64,000 nt of DNA. Source: an uncultured Verrucomicrobiota bacterium. GTDB taxonomy: Bacteria > Verrucomicrobiota > Kiritimatiellia > RFP12 > UBA1067. Of this stretch, positions 3,815 through 30,447 are shown piece by piece (within the stretch, counting starts at the first letter, position 1; every line of letters begins with the position of its first letter). Under the pieces are notes generated by a model. It was given only the letters and a program-made list of their open reading frames with translations. It had not been told where the DNA came from and did no database searches. The stretch spans positions 4,323-68,322 of the forward strand of contig CAMNBZ010000012.1 in the NCBI GenBank assembly GCA_946533675.1, given 5' to 3'. The translations under genes and the position numbers were made by a program.

Positions 3815-3994
3815 GTTTGCACCATCCTTTTTCGGAAAATGATGCCCAGACGAGCGGCAACGAACGTCCGCAGTTCATGTGGTTGACTCCACTCAGGACA
3901 CGCGCCCCTTCTCGTCAGTCCTGCGAACGGTGGAAAGTATACCAAATCTTGTGCGGCAATGCAACAGGGGACACAAGAAATTGTGGGTGGGATC

Positions 3995-18536: not shown

Positions 18537-19904
18537 TTACTTGCCGACGTTCAGGACCTTGAAGCCCGTCGTGCGCAGCGCCGCCGCGTCGAGGCAGTTG
18601 CGCGTGTCGAAGACGAGCGCGGGCTTGCGCATCGACCGGTAGATCTTCGCCCAGTCGAGCGCCGCGTACTCCTTCCAGTCGGTCATCACGATCACCGCGT
18701 CGGCGTCCTTCGCCGCCTTGTACGGATCCTTCACGTAGTCGATGCCCTCCAGCCCCGCGAGGTCGATCCGGGCGTTGTCGAGCGCCTTGGGATCGGTGAT
18801 CGCCATGCGCACGCGCTCCTCGTTCAGGAGCCGCACCACCTTGCCCGCCGGCGTCTCGCGCGTGTCGCCCGTATCGGCCTTGAACGCGAAGCCGAAGATG
18901 GCGATCTTCTTGTTGGCGAGCGTGTTGAACATCTCCTTGAACAGGCGCGAGACGATGCGCTCCTGCTGGTGGTCGTTCATCTTGATGACGCCCGCCCAGT
19001 ATTCCGCCGCCGTGTGCAGCCCGAACGATTCGCACAAATAGACGAGGTTCAGGACGTCCTTCTTGAAGCAGCTGCCGCCGAAGCCGGGGCCCGCCTTCAG
19101 GAACTTCGCGCCGATGCGGTGGTCCGCGCCCATCACGCGCGCGACCTCGTCCACGTCCGCGCCCGTCGCCTCGCAGAGGCCCGCGATGGCGTTGATCGAG
19201 CTGACGCGCTGCGCCAGCATCGCGTTCGCGGCGAGCTTCGTCAGCTCCGCGCTCCAGACGTTCGTCGTCAGGATCTTCTCGCGCGGCACCCACCGGCCGC
19301 CCGGGCCCGCGTAGATGTCGACGAGGGCCGCGACCGCCGCGTCGCCCGCCGGTGTCTTCGGCCCGCCGATCAGCACGCGGTCGGGCGCGAGGAGGTCCTT
19401 GATCGCCGTGCCTTCCGCGAGGAATTCGGGGTTGCTCAGGACCGTGAACGCCGGGCCGCCGTCGCCGCAGTTGAGGATCGCGTCCATCGCCGCCGCCGTG
19501 CGCACGGGCAGCGTCGACTTCTCGACGATGATCTTGTCGCCCGTCGCGACCTTCTTGATGTTGCGCGCCGTCGCCTCCCAGTACTGGAGGTCGCTCGCGC
19601 GGCCCGCGCCGCGCCCGAACATCTTGGTCGGGGTGTTCACGCCAACGAAGACGATGTCGCAGTCCTTCACCGCCTTGTCGATGTCGGTCGAGAAGAAGAG
19701 GTTTTTGCCGCGCACCTCCCGGACGATCTCCACGAGACCGGGCTCGTAGATGGGCAGCGCGTAGTTCTTCGAGTTCCACGCCGCGATGCGCTTGGCGTTG
19801 ATGTCGACGACGATGACCTTGCGGTCGGGGTTCATCTTGGCGATGACCGCCATGGTGGGCCCGCCGATGTAGCCGGCGCCGATGCAGACGATGTTCTTGT
19901 TCAT
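18537..19904 (-). CDS. ugd: UDP-glucose 6-dehydrogenase
   Basis: 455 aa. N-terminal Rossmann fold (VCIGAGYIGGPT) and catalytic GFGGSCFKKD. Confidence 0.85.
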   Translation of the reverse strand: MNKNIVCIGAGYIGGPTMAVIAKMNPDRKVIVVDINAKRIAAWNSKNYALPIYEPGLVEIVREVRGKNLFFSTDIDKAVKDCDIVFVGVNTPTKMFGRGAGRASDLQYWEATARNIKKVATGDKIIVEKSTLPVRTAAAMDAILNCGDGGPAFTVLSNPEFLAEGTAIKDLLAPDRVLIGGPKTPAGDAAVAALVDIYAGPGGRWVPREKILTTNVWSAELTKLAANAMLAQRVSSINAIAGLCEATGADVDEVARVMGADHRIGAKFLKAGPGFGGSCFKKDVLNLVYLCESFGLHTAAEYWAGVIKMNDHQQERIVSRLFKEMFNTLANKKIAIFGFAFKADTGDTRETPAGKVVRLLNEERVRMAITDPKALDNARIDLAGLEGIDYVKDPYKAAKDADAVIVMTDWKEYAALDWAKIYRSMRKPALVFDTRNCLDAAALRTTGFKVLNVGK

Positions 19905-20027
19905 ACGGGTGCGTAGTATATCATATTTTACCGCCCGAGGCGCGCCCGGCCGTCTACCCGCTAAAGGGGATTGTGGACGCGCGGGCGAAATGGTATACTC
20001 TCCGCCCGTTAAACAGGAGGAACAAAC

Positions 20028-22181
20028 ATGACACGTTCAGTTCGCCAAATCTTCGCGCTCGCCGCCGTCGCCGCGGCGCTTCCCGCCCTCGCCGCGCTTG
20101 AGCTCGGCGCGCCGTTCACCGACGGCGCGGTGCTCCAGCGGGACACGCCGCTGCGGATCTGGGGCCGCGCCGACGCCGGCTCCACCGTCGCCGTCACCTT
20201 CGGCGAAAAGTCCTGGACGACGACGGCGGGCACGGACGGCGCATGGCGGCTCACCCTGCCGCCGATGGCCGCCTCCGCCGAGCCGCGCACGCTGAACGTC
20301 ACCTCCGCCGCCTACGCCGGCGCGGAGCCGAACGCGGCGCTCGCCGTGCATGACATCCTCGTCGGCGAGGTGTGGATCGTCTCGGGCCAGTCGAACATGG
20401 AATGCCCGATCTGGGGCGAGAACCCGCGCTTCCGCGACGGCAAGGGCGCGCTGATGGTGTCGATGACGCACCTGCCCGACGTGCGCTTCGTCAAGAACGC
20501 GCGCGCCGCCGCCGCCGAGCCGCAGGCCGTCAAGGCGACGTGGCTCAAGTTCGAGCCCGCGAGCTTCGACTACACGAAATTCGAGCACCGCCTGCCCCTT
20601 TCGGCGATCGCGTTCTACTTCGCGCGCGAACTGCACGCGGCGCTCGGCGTGCCCGTCGGCATCGTCGACTCGACCTGGGGCGGCACGGGCATCGACGGGT
20701 GGATTCCCGAATGCGGCCTCGCCGCGTCCGACGAGCCGCGCGTCAAGGCGCTCGCCGCGAGCCGCGGGCGCGGCTGCCAGAACGCGAAGACGCTCTGGAA
20801 CGCGATGGTCGACGCCTACGCGCCCATGTCGTTCCGCGCGATGGCGTGGTACCAAGGCTGCGCGAACGCCGGACGCGATCCGGAGCTCTACGCGGCCAAG
20901 CTGAAGGCGCTGCGGGACGGGTGGGCCGCGCGCTTCGAGAAGGCGGACCTGCCAATCTACATCTTCCAGCTCGCGCCGTACAAGCAGTCGTGGTGGGACA
21001 TCTGGAAGGCGCAGGAGCAGTACGCCGCGTCCGAGCCGCGCGCGGCGCTAATTCCGCTCTTCGATGCCGGCAACTACAACGACATCCACCCGAACGACAA
21101 GGAGACGGCCGCGCAGCGCCTGCTCGCCGCCGCGCTGTCGCGCGAATACGGCTTCAAGGGGATCGCGCCCGCGCCGGCGGCCGTGAAGTCATGGAAGATC
21201 GACGGCGGCAAGTTCGCGCTCGAATTCGGCGGCTGCCATTCGCTCTACGTCTACACGCCCGACGCGCGGCCGTGCGCCGCGTTCGAGATCACGGGCGCGG
21301 ACGGCAAGTGGCAGCCGGCCGTGATCGACCAGTACGAGCGGCCGTCCAAGCACTTCAGCCGCAAGATCACCGTTTCGTCCGCCGCCGTGCCGGAGCCGAA
21401 GGCGCTCCGGTACTGCCACGCGCGGCCATTCACCGGCACGCTCTACGGCGACAACGCCCTTCCCGTCGCGCCGTTCGAGCTGATCGATCCGTCGTACGAC
21501 AAAACGACGCGCGAGTCGACGCTCCTGCCCGTGCCGGCGAACGCCGATCCGGAAGGCTGGTGGATGAAGCGCCACGCGGAGAAGCTCGCGGAAATCGCCG
21601 CGAACAAGGACCGCCGCTACGACATCGTGATGCTCGGCGACTCGATCACGCACTTTATGGAATCGAAGCCGGAGCGCGGCGGCGAGGCGTACGCGCAGTT
21701 CACGAAGGATTACAAGGTGCTCAACCTCGGCTACGGCGGCGACCGCACGGAGAACGTCATCTGGCGCGAGCTGAACGGCGAACTGGACGGCTACCGCGCG
21801 AAGCTCTTCACGGTGATGATCGGCACGAACAACAACGACTGGGGCGACAGCGACCCGGAGCACGTGTCGTACGGCATCCGCCGCGTGCTGATGATGATCC
21901 GCGAGAAGCAGCCGCAGGCGAAGATTCTGCTCGTCGCGATCACGCCGCGCGGCAAAACCGCCGCGGACCCGGCGAACCAGAAGAACATCCGCACGAACTA
22001 CGCGGCGAAGCAGCTGGCGAACGGGCAGAGCATCGTCTGGCTGGACGTGGGCGACAAGTTCCTGGGGCCGGACAAGAACCTCAAGCCGGGCCTGACGGGC
22101 GACAATCTGCATCCGAACGAAGCGGGCTACCGCGTCTTCCTCGACGCCCTCCGCCCCGCGATCGAAGGTCTGCTCAAATGA
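20028..22181 (+). CDS. Secreted carbohydrate esterase: sialate O-acetylesterase-like (SASA) domain fused to SGNH/GDSL hydrolase domain
   Basis: Signal peptide. The SASA-like block contains GQSNM. The C-terminal block contains VMLGDSIT...GYGGDRT...HPNEAGY, which are the SGNH blocks I, II and V. Confidence 0.7.
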   Translation: MTRSVRQIFALAAVAAALPALAALELGAPFTDGAVLQRDTPLRIWGRADAGSTVAVTFGEKSWTTTAGTDGAWRLTLPPMAASAEPRTLNVTSAAYAGAEPNAALAVHDILVGEVWIVSGQSNMECPIWGENPRFRDGKGALMVSMTHLPDVRFVKNARAAAAEPQAVKATWLKFEPASFDYTKFEHRLPLSAIAFYFARELHAALGVPVGIVDSTWGGTGIDGWIPECGLAASDEPRVKALAASRGRGCQNAKTLWNAMVDAYAPMSFRAMAWYQGCANAGRDPELYAAKLKALRDGWAARFEKADLPIYIFQLAPYKQSWWDIWKAQEQYAASEPRAALIPLFDAGNYNDIHPNDKETAAQRLLAAALSREYGFKGIAPAPAAVKSWKIDGGKFALEFGGCHSLYVYTPDARPCAAFEITGADGKWQPAVIDQYERPSKHFSRKITVSSAAVPEPKALRYCHARPFTGTLYGDNALPVAPFELIDPSYDKTTRESTLLPVPANADPEGWWMKRHAEKLAEIAANKDRRYDIVMLGDSITHFMESKPERGGEAYAQFTKDYKVLNLGYGGDRTENVIWRELNGELDGYRAKLFTVMIGTNNNDWGDSDPEHVSYGIRRVLMMIREKQPQAKILLVAITPRGKTAADPANQKNIRTNYAAKQLANGQSIVWLDVGDKFLGPDKNLKPGLTGDNLHPNEAGYRVFLDALRPAIEGLLK

Positions 22182-22184
22182 TCC

Positions 22185-22540
22185 TGACGGGGGGAAAACT
22201 GACTGGGGGAAGCGTTGACTGGGGGAAGCGGCGTCCCGCCGCTTTAATCAAAAAAAAACTACGCATCTCGCCCTGACTGGGAGAAGCTTGACTGGGGGAA
22301 GCGGCGTCCCGCCGCTTTGGTCAAAAAAACGCTACGCACCTCGCCCTGACTGGGAGAAGCTTGACTGGGGGAAGCGGCGTCCCGCCGCTTTGGTCAAAAA
22401 AACGCTACGCACCTCGCCCTGACTGGGAGAAGCTTGACTGGGGGAAGCGGCGTCCCGCCGCTTCTTTTCCTTTTTGTAACAAGCGGCGAGACGCCGCTTC
22501 CCCCAGTCAACGCTTCCCCCAGTCGATTTCCCCAGTCATC
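22185..22540. repeat. REP-like array: ~73-bp unit x3-4 (each with GACTGGGGGAAGC direct duplicates and the hairpin AAGCGGCG-TCC-CGCCGCTT), ending in an inverted copy
   Basis: Period of 73 bp between 22270, 22343 and 22416. A perfect 8-bp stem hairpin. The last module (22466-22525) is the reverse complement of the first. Confidence 0.85.
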
Positions 22541-22603: not shown

Positions 22604-23284
22604 ATGTGCGAACACGATTCCGAATCGATTCCCTTTGACGCAGCGTCCGAGAACAGGAATCCCCGTTTCATGTCGCGTGAAAGGGAAGTCACAAAGCGAA
22701 GCGCCAATCTCCCGCATTGGGAACAGGGCGACACCTGCGTTTTCGTGACCTTTCGCCTTGCCGATTCCATTCCCGAAAACACGATAGGACGGTTGAAGGA
22801 GGAGCGAGACGACTGGCTGGCCCAACATGCTAAGCCTTGGGACGACGAAGAGAAAAAGGAATATATCACAGCTTTCGGCAATGTGCTGGAGAAATGGCTG
22901 GACGACGGACTCGGCTCCTGCGCGCTCGGACAACCTGACAATCTTGCAATGATGTGCGACGCGATGCGTCACTTCGACGGCAAACGCTATGTCTTGTACG
23001 CATTTGCGGTGATGCCCAACCACGTGCATGCGCTGTTCAGCCCGATCGGCGATTTCTCCGCAAGCGGGATTCTCCATTCATGGAAGAGCTTCACCGCGCA
23101 CAAAGCCAGACGCACAAACGGCGATTCCGGTCCGTTCTGGCAGAAAGAAAGCTGGGATCGGCTGATCCGCGACGACCGCCATTTTGCGAATGTCGTCAAG
23201 TACATCGCGAGGAATCCGCGCAATGCCGGCGGTGTCGGCTATGCGTATGTGAGAGCTGACCTTCTCCACCACACCTCGCCCTGA
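22604..23284 (+). mobile_element. REP-associated tyrosine transposase (RAYT / IS200-like Y1 HUH transposase)
   Basis: 226 aa. ANLPHWEQGDTCVFVTFRL, HUH motif MPNHVHALF, and catalytic Tyr context NVVKYIARNP. Flanked on both sides by REP arrays. Leaderless start 6 nt after TGCTAAAAT. Lower GC than the surroundings. Confidence 0.75.
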
Positions 23285-23460
23285 CTGGGGGAAGGGCTGA
23301 CTGGGGGAAGCGGCGTCCCGCCGCTTCTGTCAAAACGCTACACTCCTCGCCCTGACTGGGGGAAGCGGCGTCCCGCCGCTTCTTTATAAAATTGAACTTT
23401 TCCTTTTTGTAGCAAGCGGCGAGACGCCGCTTCCCCCAGTCAACGCTTCCCCCAGTCATC
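23281..23460. repeat. REP-like array (second flank of the RAYT), terminal inverted module identical to 22466-22525
   Basis: Copies of GACTGGGGGAAGCGGCGTCCCGCCGCTT, then TTTTCCTTTTTGTA[A/G]CAAGCGGCGAGACGCCGCTTCCCCCAGTCAACGCTTCCCCCAGTC. Confidence 0.85.
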
Positions 23461-23487
23461 AGCCAACCTCAAGAAACCGTTTTCCCC

Positions 23488-23507
23488 TATCCCCGCGTGC
23501 GGGGATA
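23488..23507. promoter_or_regulatory. Palindrome TATCCCCGCG-T-GCGGGGATA, 61 nt upstream of PATR gene 1
   Basis: Perfect 9-10 bp arms. The same motif recurs at 26055-26076, upstream of the paralogous gene. Confidence 0.5.
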
Positions 23508-23567
23508 CCGCGCCGCGGCCAAAAAAGATACAATATCGGCATCAATCCACAAAGGAGAGGGATCACC

Positions 23568-26036
23568 ATGCGTTCAGACAAACTGTTTCTCGCAATCGCG
23601 CTCGCAACAACGGCGGCAAACGGCGCAAAACTGACCGTCTCGGCAGACGGCGTCAATCTCGACGGCACACCGCTTGCGGACAGAAAGCTGACCAAGAACA
23701 CAGAGGTTGCTGAACTGGAAATATCAGGCGGACAACTTGATCTGGCCGGACATAATTTGACCTTTAACGGAACCGTCAACGCGCTGAACATCCACACTGA
23801 TGCATCAGCATCCATCAACAGTAGTATAAGCGAGGGCGAGCCAGCGGTTATTAAGTTTAAATTTACAGACGGAGCGCGGCGGTTCGCAGGCGATCTGCTA
23901 AAACCCATAACGTTTAAGGGCAATCTGACGCTTGAACTTAATGGCCTGTCCACCGGCGGAAAGTGGCTTTTTGGTGGCAATGAAGCTGACAACCCCCATA
24001 ACAACAAGCACATAGGCGGCACAATTTTTGACCAATATTACATCAGTGCCGGTGCAGATATTAATACAGTCGCAAACTACGCCCGCTTTGGTGGAAACAT
24101 AAACAATAAGGTCCACAGCACTGATTTAGGGGAAGGACCTGTCACACTTAAAAATGGTTCTATGTTGGTGTATACTGGCCCTGATGACAAGATTCAACCA
24201 TGGACCAAACTTATTGCCGTAAATGAATCTGCTAATTCATACACGAATGTTCTCAGACTTGAGAATCGAATGGTGCTAACAGGCACATCTGTCGAGGTGG
24301 ACGAATATTCAAGGCTGATGATTGCAACTAAGAACAAATATCTGGCTTGGACTAACGATTTTTCCAAGGTTCGCGGGTGGCTTGGGTTCTGTGGTGAATA
24401 TTCAAGTTCTATTCGCGCGGTGTTCACGGGCACAGAAAATGTCGGTTTCCCCAATGCTCATGTTCAGGTGTTCGAGCCTGACAAGGAAGATAAGGGAATC
24501 AAGCAAGTTTATCAACTTCGGTTTGAATCCAAACAGGATGTGCCAATTAAAATCGGAGAACTTTCAACGCCCGACACTGTAAAACAAGCAACTACAAATG
24601 TTGTTATCGTTAATGTCAGCGGGGCAACACGGACGTTGGAAATAGGAGGGCTTGGAACCGATTCAACATTCTACGGCAAGATTTCTGCAAATGGCGCTTC
24701 TGGACTTAATGTCACGAAGGTCGGCCAAGGCACGCTCACTCTCGGTGGCGAAAACACCTATACCGGCGACACAACTGTATCTGCAGGCACATTGAAGGTT
24801 CAAATGCTGACCTCAGGGGCATGGCCAACCGGAAAATTTACTGTAGAAAACGGTGCAAAGCTTGAATTGACGCTTCGTAACAACAGTTCTACGCGCCTGG
24901 GTGATGACGGATGCCGCAACATACCGACTGGCAGCACCATCAATTTTTCAGCAACGAACCCAAGTTATTTGCCTCGACTCGGGGCTGTAGAGGACTTTAT
25001 AGGGATTATTAATTTCATAGATTCGGATGAGACTGTGACAGCTGTTGGATTTGTGAAAGAAGACAACTATACTTATGGCAGCAATGATATTTCATGGGGA
25101 ATCCTCGGAGAACCCACAGCAAGAAAGGTTCTTTTCCATGTTGACGCAAATACTAATGCAAAAGTCAACATGGGTGCATTTAACATGCCGAGCGAGAATG
25201 CGGTTCTCTATTGCAAACCAAGCACGCAAACCACGTTTAATATTGGCGCACTCAATACGGATAGCTACATCAACGGATGGATTACCGCACGAACTGCCAC
25301 AAGCAAAATCGAGATAAATCATACAGGCTCAGGCACACTTACACTTGGAAAAGATTTCAAGACAACTGTTTGTGACATACAAGGAACGCCGATTACATAT
25401 AACGACGATGCAAAGGCCGATGTCACGATTAACATCAAGAGCGGCGCCCTCGTCAATTACGCGGATCTTTCCAAAATTAATTTGAAGGTGCAGAGTGGTA
25501 CAACAATTGTCAATTACGGGACATTGGGTGCTGTTGAGCTGTATAAGTATGAGAACGATGGCTCGACCATCACTACCGTTGCAAGAATGGATGCAGAGGG
25601 GAAGATAACCTATGCGATGAACTCTGGTCGTGCGGTGGAAATTGCCAAATTGGCATATAAATATTCAAACGATGAACTTGCCTCAAATTATGACTCTTAC
25701 TTTGAAACAAAAGTGACATCAAACGGCGACAACGCCTACACCTATGAAATAACGCTTAAGGACGAAGCAAAACCCACGATTGGGGCGGGAAGTGACGGCC
25801 AGGCCGCGACAATTGAAGGCCAGAGCATCAAATTCAACCATGAGAAGATGAATCTGAAGCCGGGGCTGTATTATGCGATCAGCGCGAAGGAAAAACCGGA
25901 CGAGGAAGCAACGGCAGATTCCTACAAGCTCTATACGACGGAGAACGCCAGCAACTTCTCGCTTTCGGCTGATTTGCCGGAAAGCGGGGTCAAGTACTAC
26001 AAGGTGCTGGTCAGCGATAATGAAAACGGGAAGTGA
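23568..26036 (+). CDS. Large secreted protein with autotransporter-associated beta-strand (PATR) repeats
   Basis: 822 aa. Signal peptide MRSDKLFLAIALATTAANGA. Repeats of the form GxGTLTLGGENTYTGDTTVSAGTLKV. No detectable C-terminal beta-barrel. GC is ~50%, against ~68% for the window. Confidence 0.7.
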   Translation: MRSDKLFLAIALATTAANGAKLTVSADGVNLDGTPLADRKLTKNTEVAELEISGGQLDLAGHNLTFNGTVNALNIHTDASASINSSISEGEPAVIKFKFTDGARRFAGDLLKPITFKGNLTLELNGLSTGGKWLFGGNEADNPHNNKHIGGTIFDQYYISAGADINTVANYARFGGNINNKVHSTDLGEGPVTLKNGSMLVYTGPDDKIQPWTKLIAVNESANSYTNVLRLENRMVLTGTSVEVDEYSRLMIATKNKYLAWTNDFSKVRGWLGFCGEYSSSIRAVFTGTENVGFPNAHVQVFEPDKEDKGIKQVYQLRFESKQDVPIKIGELSTPDTVKQATTNVVIVNVSGATRTLEIGGLGTDSTFYGKISANGASGLNVTKVGQGTLTLGGENTYTGDTTVSAGTLKVQMLTSGAWPTGKFTVENGAKLELTLRNNSSTRLGDDGCRNIPTGSTINFSATNPSYLPRLGAVEDFIGIINFIDSDETVTAVGFVKEDNYTYGSNDISWGILGEPTARKVLFHVDANTNAKVNMGAFNMPSENAVLYCKPSTQTTFNIGALNTDSYINGWITARTATSKIEINHTGSGTLTLGKDFKTTVCDIQGTPITYNDDAKADVTINIKSGALVNYADLSKINLKVQSGTTIVNYGTLGAVELYKYENDGSTITTVARMDAEGKITYAMNSGRAVEIAKLAYKYSNDELASNYDSYFETKVTSNGDNAYTYEITLKDEAKPTIGAGSDGQAATIEGQSIKFNHEKMNLKPGLYYAISAKEKPDEEATADSYKLYTTENASNFSLSADLPESGVKYYKVLVSDNENGK

Positions 26037-26054
26037 GCCCCCCCATGCGCCCTG

Positions 26055-26076
26055 CTATCCCCGCGAGCGGGGATAG
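26055..26076. promoter_or_regulatory. Palindrome CTATCCCCGCG-A-GCGGGGATAG, 57 nt upstream of PATR gene 2
   Basis: Perfect 10-bp arms. Paralogous to the site at 23488-23507. Confidence 0.5.
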
Positions 26077-26132
26077 CGCGAAGCGCAAAAAAATATTAAA
26101 CTATATGTGTCAATCAACCAAGGAGGGTTTCC

Positions 26133-28289
26133 ATGCGTTCAAACAAACAGATTCTCGCAATCGCGCTCGCAACAGCGGCAATGACCGTAACAGAGCTGTG
26201 GGCGGCAGACTTGAAGGTCAGCGCTGACCGAAAGCTGGAAATTACGTCCGCAACCTCATACGAGAACCTCATTCTGGAGAACGGCGCGACGCTGACGCTG
26301 ACTTCTAACGGAAACGTCCTCGAAATCACCGGCGCAATCAGCGGCACGGGGACGATCGAGCTGAACAAGGGCAAGATCGGAATTGTCGCCGACGTGCCTT
26401 CGACGGTCGCGTGGAAGATTACCGGCACAGGAACCACTTCTGCCGAAAACCGCATCATTTCGCGCGTCGCAGGGAGCGACAACATCAAGAAGATCAAAGG
26501 TCCGCTGACAGGAACGGGAAGCGTCCGCGTAATGGGAGGACCTGCAAGTGGCATCGGCGGCATATCGGTCGCGGGCGACAACAGCAATTTCGAAGGCAAA
26601 CTCATCATCGGGAAAAATTCCTACAACCGCCTGGGCGCATCGACGGCCGGCGGCGCGGAAATGTCGCTCGAATACGACGGCAACTCCGGCAACGATGGAT
26701 CGCCCGATTTCGGCGGCGGAACGCTGGAATTCGGCTCGATCTACACCACTTCGCGCACGACGGAAGGTTATCCGTGGCGTTTCAACGACGGCGACTACAC
26801 CCTCAAAGTCGGCGCGCTCAACAAGGACAACGACCGCATCAGCATCAAGCTCGGCGAAAGCAACGCCACGACCGGCAAGGTGCGCATCGAAAAGGTCGGC
26901 ACGGGAACGCTTGAACTCTGGAACGTGAACAACCGCAACGGCATTGACATCAACGGCGGAACTGTTCTCGTCACCTCCGACGGTGCGCTTGCCAACGGCA
27001 AAGGAGACATCACCTTCGGCGGCGGCACGCTGAAATACGGTGTCAACGCGTGGGCGGACGACGGCACGGCACTCGCAACGCCCGCCCCCGTCACGACCGA
27101 CTATTCTGCGCAGATCAAAAATTCAACGGCAGCAATCGCCATCGACACCGGCGACAACGATATCATTTTTAATACCGCTCTGGCCGCATCAAACGTTGGC
27201 GGACTCGTGAAGCTCGGCGGCGGCACGCTCGAAGTGAAGGGAGATAATGCGTATAGCGGCAAGACGATCGTCTCCAACGGCACATTGAAGGTTGCATTCA
27301 AATACTACACAGAAGAAGGTCTGACAGGTCGCATGTTCGAAGCGGAAGCCGGTGCGAATCTTGAAGTGACCATGACCAGCCATTTGTCAAATCGCCACGC
27401 CTCCGAATCCAGCCTTCTCAACATCTTCCCGGATGGATCGACCTTGAACTTCATTGAGGACGATACCCGCGGCATGCCGCGTTTCACCAATGCCGCGAAA
27501 CTGAAAGGAACCGTCAACTTCCTGAACGACAAGGACAACACGACCTCTGGTGGCGGCTTTGTCGGCAGCGTGGCAGAGCTGGGCAGCAATGACATCGACT
27601 GGGGCATTCTGGGCGCCCCGGAAACACTGACCCGTGTGTTTGACATTGAGTCTGCTGCGAGCGGCGGCACGATCTATTTCGGAAATCTGCGCATGCCCTC
27701 CCAGAACGCCGAAGTGTACATGAAGCGCAAAGCGATATTCAAGGTCGGTGCCTTGGGGAAAGAGGGATCTGTCAACGGCACCCTCCTCATGGGGAACAAC
27801 AACGATTTCACATGGAACCAGGTCGGCGGCAAGATGACGTTTGGAAACAGCTTCAAAGTTGTCACCACCGGCTCTGCAACCTTCAACTTTGATGCAGGAG
27901 AAGTCGTCAACAACGCAAACCTTTCCGACTATACGGTTTCGCTCGCGGACGGCGTGACGCTTTCCGGCGCGGGTACGTGGCCGGCGAACATGATGCTGCC
28001 GGCGAGCTACCGGGTCGCGGCAATCGATCCTGTGGACGGCGCGACACCCCCGACGCTCGACCTCGACGTCGACTTCTCCAAGGCGACGCTGGACAATCGG
28101 CCGACGAAAGAAACGGTCACAACGCTCGACACCGAGAAGACCTACAAGATCTTCGCGGCAAAGTCGATCGCCAACTGGACCACGGCCGAAATCGCCGTGC
28201 GGCCGAACGGCCGGTGGAAAGTCGTCCAGCGGGGCGACAGCCTTGTTCTCAAGTTCTTCCACAAGGGCTTCGCCGTCATTCTTCGCTGA
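26133..28289 (+). CDS. Large secreted PATR-repeat protein, paralog of 23568..26036
   Basis: 718 aa. Conserved signal peptide MRSNKQILAIALATAAM. Block GGGTLEVKGDNAYSGKTIVSNGTLKV. Low GC. Confidence 0.7.
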   Translation: MRSNKQILAIALATAAMTVTELWAADLKVSADRKLEITSATSYENLILENGATLTLTSNGNVLEITGAISGTGTIELNKGKIGIVADVPSTVAWKITGTGTTSAENRIISRVAGSDNIKKIKGPLTGTGSVRVMGGPASGIGGISVAGDNSNFEGKLIIGKNSYNRLGASTAGGAEMSLEYDGNSGNDGSPDFGGGTLEFGSIYTTSRTTEGYPWRFNDGDYTLKVGALNKDNDRISIKLGESNATTGKVRIEKVGTGTLELWNVNNRNGIDINGGTVLVTSDGALANGKGDITFGGGTLKYGVNAWADDGTALATPAPVTTDYSAQIKNSTAAIAIDTGDNDIIFNTALAASNVGGLVKLGGGTLEVKGDNAYSGKTIVSNGTLKVAFKYYTEEGLTGRMFEAEAGANLEVTMTSHLSNRHASESSLLNIFPDGSTLNFIEDDTRGMPRFTNAAKLKGTVNFLNDKDNTTSGGGFVGSVAELGSNDIDWGILGAPETLTRVFDIESAASGGTIYFGNLRMPSQNAEVYMKRKAIFKVGALGKEGSVNGTLLMGNNNDFTWNQVGGKMTFGNSFKVVTTGSATFNFDAGEVVNNANLSDYTVSLADGVTLSGAGTWPANMMLPASYRVAAIDPVDGATPPTLDLDVDFSKATLDNRPTKETVTTLDTEKTYKIFAAKSIANWTTAEIAVRPNGRWKVVQRGDSLVLKFFHKGFAVILR

Positions 28290-28312: not shown

Positions 28313-28392
28313 CTGACTGGGGGAAGCGGCGTCCCGCCGCTTGCTAAAAAGGAGAAGGTTCAGATTACGAAGCGGCGGGACGCCGCTTCTCC
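28313..28392. repeat. REP pair (direct + inverted copy of GACTGGGGGAAGCGGCGTCCCGCCGCTT)
   Basis: CACTGACTGGGGGAAGCGGCGTCCCGCCGCTT ... AAGCGGCGGGACGCCGCTTCTCCCAGTCA, lying between PATR gene 2 and the histidine kinase. Confidence 0.8.
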
Positions 28393-28462
28393 CAGTCACC
28401 AGTTCATCTCCCGGTCATCTGTCGCCCTTCACATTGCCTGTTAGTTTTGGTAAAATTGTCGC

Positions 28463-29848
28463 ATGACGCTTAAGACCAGAATTCTCGTCACCCTCGCCTT
28501 CGCCGCGGCCCTCGGCCACGGCGAGGTGCTTTTCACCACCAACGACGCGCCCGCGCGCGTGGAAGGCGTGGCCGTCTGGCACCGGCCCGCCGACCAGTAC
28601 TACTACCTCCTCGACGACGCGGGCGGCGCGTGGCGAATCCGCAACGCCGATGGCCGGGTGCTGATCCGTCCGGGCGACCGCGTGCGCGTCGAGGGCGTCA
28701 AACCCAGGGGTTCGGCCCGCCCGCGCATCGAACGCGCGACGACCGAGAAGATCGGCACGGGCAGCCTCCCCGAACCGATCGAGATGACGGTCGACGAGAT
28801 GTACGCGGTCGGCGACGACGGCGAGGCGGGCCGCCGCGCGTGGTACGCGCGCCTCGTGGCGGTGCGCGGCATCGTCACCGACATCAACCGCCGCGAGACA
28901 TACACGCAGATCCTCCTCGGGCCCAAGAGCCGCTCCGTCCAGATCGCCCTGCCGATCCGCTGGAGCGATCCCCTTCCCAAGGGTCTCGCGTTCGGCGCGT
29001 TCGTGCGCGTGCGCGGCATCGGCCACTACGACCCGCTGCCGCCGGACCACAAGGGCGCGGTGACCGGGCTCGTGAACTTCAGCGTCTACCCCGAGCGCCT
29101 CGCCGACCTCCAGATTCTCGACGAGGCCCCCTTCTGGACGCCGCTGAAAATCTTCGCCGCCTGCACCGCGTTCGCGTTCGTAATGCTCGGCGTCGTCGCG
29201 CTCGTCCTGCGCGCGCGCGTACGCGACCGCATCGCCGCGGACGCCGCGCGGCGCGAACGGCTCCGGCTCACGAGCGAGCTGCACGACAACTTCCAGCAGC
29301 TGCTCGCCGGATGCATGTTCCGCCTCGGCGCGGCGATGGGCAAGGTCGGGAAGGACGACGACGCGGCGCGCGCCCAGCTGGAGCTGCTGCGCAACTCGCT
29401 CAACCACACGCAGTCTTCCCTGCGCTCCGCGCTGTGGGGGCTGACGGAGGAGGCGGAAGGCCCCGCCGCGCTCTCGGAACTCTTCAGGTACGCCGCGAGC
29501 CGGCTGCCGCAGTGGACGGGCATCGTCCATTTCACGGTGCGCGGGCGCGAGCGCGCCGTCGCGCGCAAGTGCTCCGGCTCGCTCCTGCTCATTCTCCAGG
29601 AGGCCGTCGGCAACGCCCTCCGTCACGGCGGCGCGAAGCGCGTCGACGTCATCGTCGACTTTCTGGACAACGCCCTGGTCTTCGGCGTCCGGGACGACGG
29701 CTGCGGTTTCGACAGCCGCACGCCGCCGAAGAGCGGGCATCTCGGGCTGGTGACGATGCGCCAGCACGCGGAAGGCCTCGGCGGCACGCTGACCGTCGTC
29801 AGCCGCGAGGGCGAAGGAACAACCGTGACGGTCAGGATACCTCTATGA
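28463..29848 (+). CDS. Sensor histidine kinase (NarL/HisKA_3 type) with N-terminal periplasmic domain
   Basis: 461 aa. Signal peptide/TM, a periplasmic domain, a second TM, the H-box LTSELHDNFQQLL, and a HATPase region (N box ...NALRHG...). Leaderless start 6 nt after TGGTAAAAT. Confidence 0.8.
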   Translation: MTLKTRILVTLAFAAALGHGEVLFTTNDAPARVEGVAVWHRPADQYYYLLDDAGGAWRIRNADGRVLIRPGDRVRVEGVKPRGSARPRIERATTEKIGTGSLPEPIEMTVDEMYAVGDDGEAGRRAWYARLVAVRGIVTDINRRETYTQILLGPKSRSVQIALPIRWSDPLPKGLAFGAFVRVRGIGHYDPLPPDHKGAVTGLVNFSVYPERLADLQILDEAPFWTPLKIFAACTAFAFVMLGVVALVLRARVRDRIAADAARRERLRLTSELHDNFQQLLAGCMFRLGAAMGKVGKDDDAARAQLELLRNSLNHTQSSLRSALWGLTEEAEGPAALSELFRYAASRLPQWTGIVHFTVRGRERAVARKCSGSLLLILQEAVGNALRHGGAKRVDVIVDFLDNALVFGVRDDGCGFDSRTPPKSGHLGLVTMRQHAEGLGGTLTVVSREGEGTTVTVRIPL

Positions 29849-30447
29849 CGAAGATTGTGATTATCGACGACCACCCCGTCGTGCGCGACGGCATGTCCGC
29901 CATGCTCGAAAACGAAAGCGACTTCTCGGTCGTCTGCGCCGCGAAGTGCGGCGAGGACGCCGTGGACTACGTGCGCCGCCACGGCGCGCCCGACATCGTC
30001 GTCAGCGACATCCGCATGCCGGGGCTGGACGGCTTCGAGACGCTCGCGCGCCTGAAGCGCTTCTTTCCGGATATCCGCGTGCTGCTGCTCGCGGGGATGC
30101 CGCTGAGGATCGAGGAGGAGAAGGCGCGCGCGGCCGGGGCGCGCGGCTACCTGCCGAAAAGCCTCGACTGGGAGCGCCTCGTCGCGGCGATCCGCCTCGC
30201 GGCGCAGGACGGCGGCTTCATCGCCGACGACTTCGACGAGCCGAAGGTCGGACCGCTCAGCCGACGCGAGATCGAGGTGCTCACCTACATCGCCCAGGGC
30301 AAGACGCACGAGGAGATCGGGATGATCGGCGACATCAGCGCGGAGACGGTGCGCACGCACATGAAGAGCATCTTCCGCAAGCTCGACTGCACCAACGCGC
30401 CGGCGGCCGTTTCGCGCGCCTACGAGCTCGGCATCCTGCGCGCCTAG
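29845..30447 (+). CDS. Response regulator, NarL/LuxR family
   Basis: 200 aa. Receiver domain with phospho-acceptor D in VVSDIRMPGLDG, plus a LuxR HTH. Its ATG overlaps the histidine kinase TGA. Confidence 0.85.
   Translation: MTKIVIIDDHPVVRDGMSAMLENESDFSVVCAAKCGEDAVDYVRRHGAPDIVVSDIRMPGLDGFETLARLKRFFPDIRVLLLAGMPLRIEEEKARAAGARGYLPKSLDWERLVAAIRLAAQDGGFIADDFDEPKVGPLSRREIEVLTYIAQGKTHEEIGMIGDISAETVRTHMKSIFRKLDCTNAPAAVSRAYELGILRA

Follow-up and report, generated by a model that had tools for sequence, protein, structure and literature searches.

In a 64,000-nt stretch of contig CAMNBZ010000012.1 from an uncultured Verrucomicrobiota bacterium (the window), we found an 18-bp inverted-repeat box 22 nt upstream of the -10-like hexamer of three genes, two encoding secreted PATR-repeat proteins (PATR1 and PATR2) and one encoding a carbohydrate esterase. 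The half-sites of this box and its distance to the -10 hexamer are conserved across related lineages, and the box is likely to be the operator of the response regulator encoded beside the PATR genes. The result is a concrete candidate regulon for an uncultured gut or rumen bacterium, in which an 18-bp box in three promoters is paired with a candidate cognate two-component system. A single sensor would thereby link PATR-repeat surface proteins with carbohydrate esterases and with glycoside hydrolases, and the result offers an entry point to the regulation of glycan-degradation and adhesion loci beyond the well-studied Bacteroides systems. Its value lies in annotation and in a hypothesis and not in a new principle, because a NarL/LuxR-class dimer beside the -35 position is textbook; the box is most likely an ordinary kind of gene switch.

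The window sequence was matched by the metagenome-assembled genome GCA_002449695.1, and syntenic loci in related genomes, cited below by L numbers, were reached via PATR2 homologues. The comparison set comprised eight related lineages with 12 non-redundant sites, and its loci came from rumen and gut metagenome collections.

Direct reading and pattern searches both showed a palindrome about 60 nt upstream of each PATR gene, as a sequence-only reading of the window had claimed. Box P1, TATCCCCGC-GT-GCGGGGATA, lies on the forward strand at 23488-23507 (core ATCCCC-N6-GGGGAT at 23489-23506), before PATR1 (822 aa, secreted, with a PATR repeat; 23568-26036, forward strand). Box P2, CTATCCCCGC-GA-GCGGGGATAG, which can be written (C)TATCCCCGC-GA-GCGGGGATA(G), lies at 26055-26076 on the same strand (core at 26057-26074), starts 19 nt past the PATR1 stop codon and precedes PATR2 (718 aa, secreted, with PATR repeats; 26133-28289, forward strand). 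The arms measure 9 nt in P1 and 10 nt in P2, in agreement with the 9-10 bp of the sequence-only reading, but both copies have a 2-nt centre and not the 1-nt centre given there. The distance of 57-61 nt to the ATG was also borne out, with 60 nt (P1) and 57 nt (P2) from the palindrome end, or 61 and 58 nt from the end of the 18-nt core, and both PATR proteins indeed begin with the common peptide MRS(D/N)K(L/Q)(F/I)LAIALAT.

The pattern TATCCCCGC-NN-GCGGGGATA had exactly two matches in the window, at 23488-23507 and 26056-26075, and a search of the 64 kb with TATCCCCGCNNGCGGGGATA at up to three mismatches returned P1 and P2 as its sole matches. Only 0.04 full-palindrome matches were expected by chance, and none of 100 shuffles reached two. 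The earlier statement that the motif is absent elsewhere in the window is thus right for the full palindrome but not for the core, of which a degenerate third copy occurs at 19954-19971. A loose pattern, TATCCCCGC-N(1-5)-GCGGGGATA, was scanned across a genome collection and matched at least 120 loci. Those listed were single hairpins in unrelated taxa such as Vibrio, Sphingomonas and Clostridia, and neither the source genome nor any module-bearing locus was found among the matches listed. A small GC palindrome just 3' of the box (CCGCGcCGCGG or GCGCgaaGCGC) was dropped as a candidate functional element, since it is not conserved in L125 or in further lineages.

The third copy, box E (CTACCC-gctaaa-GGGGAT, CTACCCgctaaaGGGGAT; 19954-19971, forward strand), had been missed by the sequence-only reading. 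It was the sole additional match in the window to the core at up to two mismatches; as a count, the three matches found against 2.16 expected are not significant. Box E lies exactly 22 nt before an extended -10-like element read directly from the sequence, TGgTATACT (19991-19999, forward strand), which is conserved in L125, L126 and L140. It also lies 56 nt before the ATG at 20028 of a gene for a secreted SASA and GDSL carbohydrate esterase (20028-22181, forward strand; Pfam SASA, Lipase_GDSL_2 and Lipase_GDSL; signal peptide visible). At the orthologous esterase sites (L125, L126, L140 and L131) the half-sites and the -10 element were kept, and the N6 and the spacer had diverged. We propose the esterase gene as a regulon member. 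Because its promoter carries the box too, the earlier suggestion of an element specific to the two PATR paralogs does not stand.

Box E is situated in a divergent intergenic region (19904-19953), on the other side of which a UDP-glucose dehydrogenase gene lies on the opposite strand (18537-19904). That gene seems to have its own -10 element, TGATATACT, about 31 nt from box E, so box E might influence both promoters. In the L126 strain, about 740 nt are missing within the SASA part of the esterase (L126 6409-6430 corresponds to window 20171-20907) and the gene caller gives only a 376-aa GDSL protein, so this esterase may be truncated or a pseudogene.

Conserved core and promoter geometry

Comparison of the sites across lineages showed that the conserved element consists of the outer half-sites only, (A/C)T(C/A)CCC-N6-GGGGAT, over 18 bp. 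We define the element in this way because only those positions persist in the PATR promoters of distant lineages. Among the 12 non-redundant sites, T2, C4-C6, G13-G16 and A17 were invariant and T18 was present in 11, and almost no information was found in the inner N6 or the flanks. In the loci of close strains, the palindrome stood at the equivalent place before every PATR gene, with minor variation only at the outermost base and the central four bases, and the central dinucleotides varied among copies (GT, GA, CA). The cores of distant lineages were ATCCCCtgtaaaGGGGAT (L129/L130), CTACCCgatttcGGGGAT (L131), ATCCCCttttgaGGGGAA (L133), TTCCCCcgcgagGGGGAT (L159) and ATCCCCcataaaGGGGAT (L160). 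The box-bearing PATR homologues in these lineages were 40-47% identical, and the intergenic DNA was otherwise unalignable. The element recognised would be ATCCCC-N6-GGGGAT and not the whole 20-22 bp palindrome. The GC-rich inner bases behind the perfect 9-10-bp palindromy are a feature specific to the PATR module of this lineage.

Across 141 kb of orthologous loci, the core had 12 matches with at most two mismatches, all in promoter geometry and none elsewhere. Eight of these 12 had at most one mismatch, where about 0.14 were expected from the rate in unrelated DNA; the background sample for that rate, 994 kb of unrelated bacterial DNA, contained no exact match, one match with one mismatch and 35 with two. 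No further PATR gene or module copy was found in the window. Inspection by eye of L133 (9950-10041) showed a weaker box-like sequence, TTCCCTaaaatgTGGGAT, with three core mismatches, 23 nt before TGATAGAAT and upstream of a gene for a 926-aa protein with no Pfam match; this gene may be one more regulon member in that lineage.

The position of the box relative to the core promoter was also fixed. The box end is separated from a TAnnnT hexamer by exactly 22 nt in 11 of the first 14 copies tabulated, and L159 and L160 show the same spacing; the exceptions were L131 and L139 (23 nt) and L133 (24 nt). These -10 assignments were read from sequence alone. The hexamer often had TGn directly before it, and the box lay 56-63 nt from the ATG, or 78 nt in L133. 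In the window, the -10-like hexamers TACAAT of the PATR1 promoter (23529-23534, forward strand) and TAAACT of the PATR2 promoter (26097-26102, forward strand) each follow the core box by 22 nt.

Where a -35-like TTG was recognisable, its first base lay at the 3' box edge (TTGTGG for the esterase, TTGGCA in L133 and TTGAGG in L159). The PATR promoters of the window have neither a -35-like hexamer, TACCGC standing in its place, nor a TG extension, a lack that fits activator dependence. A scan with the sigma-70 consensus called no full promoter at either PATR gene. With an assumed transcription start about 7 nt past the -10 hexamer, the box would span about -35 to -52.

The linked two-component system and the operator reading

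Downstream of the PATR genes, the window encodes a sensor histidine kinase with HisKA_3 and HATPase_c domains (28463-29848, forward strand; Pfam). Residues 7-25 form a signal peptide or transmembrane segment, about 200 aa of periplasmic sequence follow, and a transmembrane segment spans residues 229-250. The periplasmic part (window 28463-29150) gave only weak OB-fold-like Pfam matches, to DUF5818 here and to tRNA_anti-codon in the L133 orthologue. The kinase gene has a promoter of its own, TTCACA-17-TGgTAAAAT (28428-28456).

The proposed box binder is the response regulator encoded next (29845-30447, forward strand), in which Pfam detects a receiver domain and a GerE/LuxR-type helix-turn-helix (HTH) of the NarL/FixJ class. 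Five orthologous regulators, 52-87% identical, share the invariant phosphorylation residues D8, D9, D55 and K105 and an invariant recognition helix, ETVR[ST]H.K, and the HTH as a whole is nearly invariant among them. The nearest solved structures were DesR, VraR and NarL for the whole regulator and EsrB, QscR, LiaR and VraR for the DNA-binding domain, which is an ordinary LuxR/GerE HTH.

We then compared the position of this gene pair among the loci. The HisKA_3/GerE pair adjoins box-bearing genes in the window and in L123, L125, L126, L130, L133/L136, L139, L159 and L160. It was linked to boxes in seven of the eight lineages, and no other regulatory gene pair recurred beside them. The pair lies upstream or downstream depending on the lineage, and its companions change among GH95, GH43, GH92, GH97, an alginate-lyase-like gene and the esterase. 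In L139, whose regulator is 69% identical, a box is followed after 23 nt by TGgTATCAT, a GH97/arabinofuranosidase gene and then the kinase and regulator genes, and no PATR gene is present at this locus. The occurrence of box and pair together at a non-PATR gene indicates that the box accompanies the two-component system and not the PATR genes.

The features by which a dimer operator can be recognised were found: half-sites conserved at a fixed inverted spacing (12 sites, eight lineages), a fixed position relative to the core promoter (22-24 nt to TAnnnT and 56-78 nt to the ATG), and linkage of a regulator gene to the sites in all lineages but that of L131/L161. The sequence-only reading had proposed a common operator for a dimeric regulator, possibly the downstream NarL-type protein, and comparative genomics supports this through the footprint, the linkage and the L139 locus. 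We consider it likely that the box is the operator of the neighbouring regulator, because half-sites and -10 spacing are conserved in eight lineages while the surrounding DNA is not, because the HisKA_3/GerE pair stays linked despite changes in gene order, and because the recognition helix is invariant while the regulator diverges to 52% identity.

From these comparisons, the following mechanism can be proposed. A periplasmic signal would be sensed by the HisKA_3 kinase, which would phosphorylate the GerE/NarL-type regulator, and a dimer of the regulator would bind the box. Lying beside the -35 position, the box is probably an activator site, at which the bound regulator would most likely recruit RNA polymerase where a usable -35 hexamer is absent. 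In this way, a small regulon of secreted glycan-related proteins, comprising the SASA/GDSL esterase, PATR1 and PATR2, would be switched on. Activation rather than repression is held less surely than the identity of the box as an operator.

Four observations weigh against this proposal. The kinase-regulator operon has no box of its own, and autoregulation is therefore not indicated. In L131/L161, boxes precede a GDSL esterase gene and a PATR gene, and no HisKA_3/GerE pair was found within 22 kb. The regulator and the box never vary across lineages, so they offer no co-variation. Finally, most of the related promoters have an extended -10 element and may work without an activator, which leaves room for a repressor role.

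The first two of these observations also favour an alternative in which the box is a true operator bound by another dimeric transcription factor encoded elsewhere, the neighbouring pair controlling something else. We consider this unlikely, since only the kinase-regulator pair recurs beside the boxes, in rearranged gene orders, and it does so at the non-PATR gene of L139 as well. An inverted repeat of 18-20 bp also suits a dimer of a GerE-type HTH.

A hairpin acting at the level of nucleic acid, whether a terminator lacking a U-tract, an insulator, a 3'-end stabiliser of the upstream gene or a leader attenuator, is a still less probable explanation, although the sequence-only reading had raised a hairpin or attenuator. 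The PATR copies fold well as RNA (-12.8 and -21.8 kcal/mol, z down to -3.9), and some copies lie close behind a gene: P2 follows the PATR1 stop as described above, and in L125 a gap of 12 nt separates the esterase stop from the box. However, no U-run follows the box on either strand, and a terminator scan made no call at these sites. The stability of the stem is not conserved, the esterase and L131 sites (z -0.02 to -1.8) being no better than shuffled sequence. Over the 12 sites, 74% of the cells were paired compared with 70.6% in shuffles, and 55 of 500 shuffles reached the observed value. Changes in the left arm simply break pairs, leaving its variable positions unpaired in 4-7 of the 12 sites, and no compensatory change was seen. 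What has been kept is sequence and distance to the -10 hexamer, neither of which a terminator needs. With a transcription start downstream of the -10 hexamer, the downstream mRNA would not contain the box at all. A search of Rfam 15 returned nothing at the boxes, whether the gathering threshold or a cut-off of E up to 1 was applied, its only results being sub-threshold miRNA-like matches on the repetitive extragenic palindromic (REP) hairpins described below. An intrinsic terminator, which is a stable GC-rich stem-loop with a U-tract directly behind it, was accordingly rejected, given the missing U-tract, the unconserved stem stability and the lack of covariation.

PATR genes, strain mosaicism and locus surroundings

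Alignment of the regions upstream of PATR1 and PATR2 showed that their homology opens exactly at the palindrome, runs through the A-run, the -10 hexamer, the ribosome-binding site and about 16 codons, and then collapses. The resulting 5' module of about 125 nt, made up of box, spacer, -10, ribosome-binding site and the first ~16 codons, occupies 23487-23615 at PATR1 (ribosome-binding site AAGGAG at 23552-23557) and 26055-26180 at PATR2, both on the forward strand. Within it, identity is 92-95% in the box and in the signal-peptide codons and about one half in the 22-nt spacer. The PATR1 and PATR2 proteins share 33% identity, confined to about 270 C-terminal residues. P1 and P2 are not independent copies, since both promoters derive from a single duplicated 5' module; their near identity as full palindromes is partly due to inheritance with this module.

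That both copies lie within the duplicated module, at a mosaic hotspot adjoined by a REP-associated tyrosine transposase (RAYT) with REP repeats, would suit an explanation in which the copies are alike only through recent duplication or gene conversion and the palindrome is functionless, or in which it is a REP-like or recombination site at a cassette boundary. This is very improbable, because the core is kept in distant lineages where the PATR proteins and intergenic DNA have diverged as described above, and because it also precedes the non-homologous esterase and GH97 genes. Elements of the REP/REPIN type occur as many dispersed intergenic copies without a fixed relation to promoters and are associated with a RAYT transposase. 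A REP/REPIN element was rejected, as the 141 kb of related loci hold only promoter-positioned copies and the local RAYT gene is flanked by a repeat of different sequence, TGACTGGGGGAAGCGGCGTCCCGCCGCTT. A site-specific recombination site was rejected as well: no serine or tyrosine site-specific recombinase gene was found beside the sites, the only transposase-like gene nearby being the RAYT, and the central dinucleotides differ among copies. Recombination sites of the hix/gix type have a 12-2-12 layout, and such sites are expected to have a recombinase gene close by, identical crossover dinucleotides and rearrangement junctions. Homology between strains extends across the box into the DNA on either side, so no recombination junction falls there.

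A side finding of greater interest is that the PATR genes are mosaic at the level of strains, under a constant, regulated 5' module. We compared window 23616-28289 with the close strains L123, L125, L126 and L137. The flanks were 98% identical, and the PATR middles were unalignable. The frame of esterase, kinase and regulator in close strains encloses one or two PATR genes of 691-822 aa, and the slot between them is hypervariable, with conserved 5' modules and 3' ends. The same 5' module stands before different gene bodies in L123 and L126; the PATR2 module is 98% identical to the gene-2 module of L123, and the gene bodies behind them cannot be aligned. Gene 1 of L126 is a chimera of the slot-1 promoter, a PATR2-like body (84% identity) and a PATR1-like 3' end. 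The PATR1 body (window 24000-26000) has 43-48% GC, compared with 68-70% GC in the genome, and the 5' module and last ~540 nt of the gene look native in composition. This low-GC body between native-looking ends points to an insert, foreign or strongly divergent, within a native frame.

A possible, though rather doubtful, explanation is that the module of box, promoter and signal peptide serves as a constant expression and secretion head under the two-component system, behind which PATR bodies are exchanged by homologous recombination. It is based on the unalignable PATR middles within 98%-identical flanks, the low-GC body and the L126 chimera. If this were true, the locus would be a population-level variation system for surface proteins. 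It would lie inside a new, non-Bacteroidota type of polysaccharide-utilisation locus (PUL), in which the PATR proteins act at the surface as regulated components for glycan binding or adhesion.

No autotransporter barrel was detected in PATR1. At the C-terminus of PATR2-type proteins there is a conserved tail of basic and hydrophobic character (LVLKFFHKGFAVILR, LVLKYSKKAFVIILR, RVKNGFMIRFH*; window 28230-28289 and L125, L127 and L160), which may be a sorting or anchoring signal; PATR1 does not carry this tail.

Further features were observed around the locus. Between the esterase gene and PATR1, a 226-aa open reading frame (22604-23284, forward strand) matched Pfam Y1_Tnp (IS200-like) above the curated cut-off. 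Around it lie inverted clusters of the ~29-nt hairpin repeat TGACTGGGGGAAGCGGCGTCCCGCCGCTT (22192-22533, 23281-23458 and 28314-28405), and together the open reading frame and the repeats look like a RAYT with REP elements. In the L126 strain, whose flanks are 98% identical, the RAYT gene is absent and the repeats are still there. In the metagenome contig L140, about 9.9 kb is missing, and with it the RAYT, the two PATR genes and the kinase as well as the body of the esterase and the N-terminal part of the regulator. At L140 6991-7006, the 5' part of the esterase is fused to the 3' part of the response regulator (window 20285/30228) with 8-9 nt of microhomology (CGAGCCG). This junction may reflect a deletion variant that occurs in nature or a chimeric assembly. 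A ZMP/ZTP riboswitch (RF01750; 54.4 bits, gathering score 39) lies at 3837-3932 on the reverse strand.

Comparison with known systems

The closest parallel among characterised regulators is NarL/NarP of Escherichia coli (NarL C-terminal domain bound to DNA, PDB 1JE8). Both systems combine a receiver and a GerE-type HTH with kinase partners of the HisKA_3 class, and a dimer on an inverted repeat is proposed here as well. A strict NarL 7-2-7 site consists of two inverted TACYYMT heptamers with a 2-bp spacer. The half-site TACCCCT in the engineered NarL site TACCCCTAAAGGGGTA resembles (T)ATCCCC or CTACCC of the present boxes, but the gap between the C and G runs is 6 bp here (CCCC-N6-GGGG) and 4 bp in a 7-2-7 site (CCCC-N4-GGGG). 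With these 2 bp of extra distance between its half-sites, the box is not a NarL 7-2-7 site in the strict sense. The regulator is also distant from NarL (E ~1e-19 with the full-length protein and 8.5e-4 with only the DNA-binding domain), and it has an Arg in the recognition helix where the NarL-type relatives in the alignments usually have a Lys. The targets differ too, being respiratory enzymes for NarL and secreted glycan-related proteins here. NarL output domains bind inverted heptamers as dimers, as on TACCCCTAAAGGGGTA, and activate napF and yeaR from about -38 to -49 (PMC4549865).

The second parallel is the lux box with its LuxR/TraR activators. LuxR homologues and other LuxR-type proteins bind 20-bp palindromes centred at -42.5 (PMC4471428). 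The likeness lies in a palindrome of this size at about this position, next to the -35 and bound by a GerE/LuxR HTH dimer; QscR, CviR and RhlR, all of the LuxR family, are among the nearest solved DNA-binding domains. However, the half-site is unrelated to that of the lux box. Nor is the present box a lux box, since the regulator is of the response-regulator kind, controlled by phosphorylation, and not a quorum-sensing receptor for acyl-homoserine lactones.

At the level of the locus, the arrangement recalls the PULs of Bacteroides, where hybrid two-component systems act as local sensor-regulators. As in those loci, a local membrane sensor is encoded beside secreted glycoside hydrolases, esterases and surface proteins, here with a common promoter motif. 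Unlike them, the present locus has a classical two-protein HisKA_3/GerE system and no SusC/SusD genes. A literature search for PATR genes and two-component regulation returned no paper linking PATR to such a regulator. The PATR beta-strand-repeat proteins stand where surface glycan-binding proteins would be expected, and by this analogy we speculate that they may be surface glycan-binding components of the locus.

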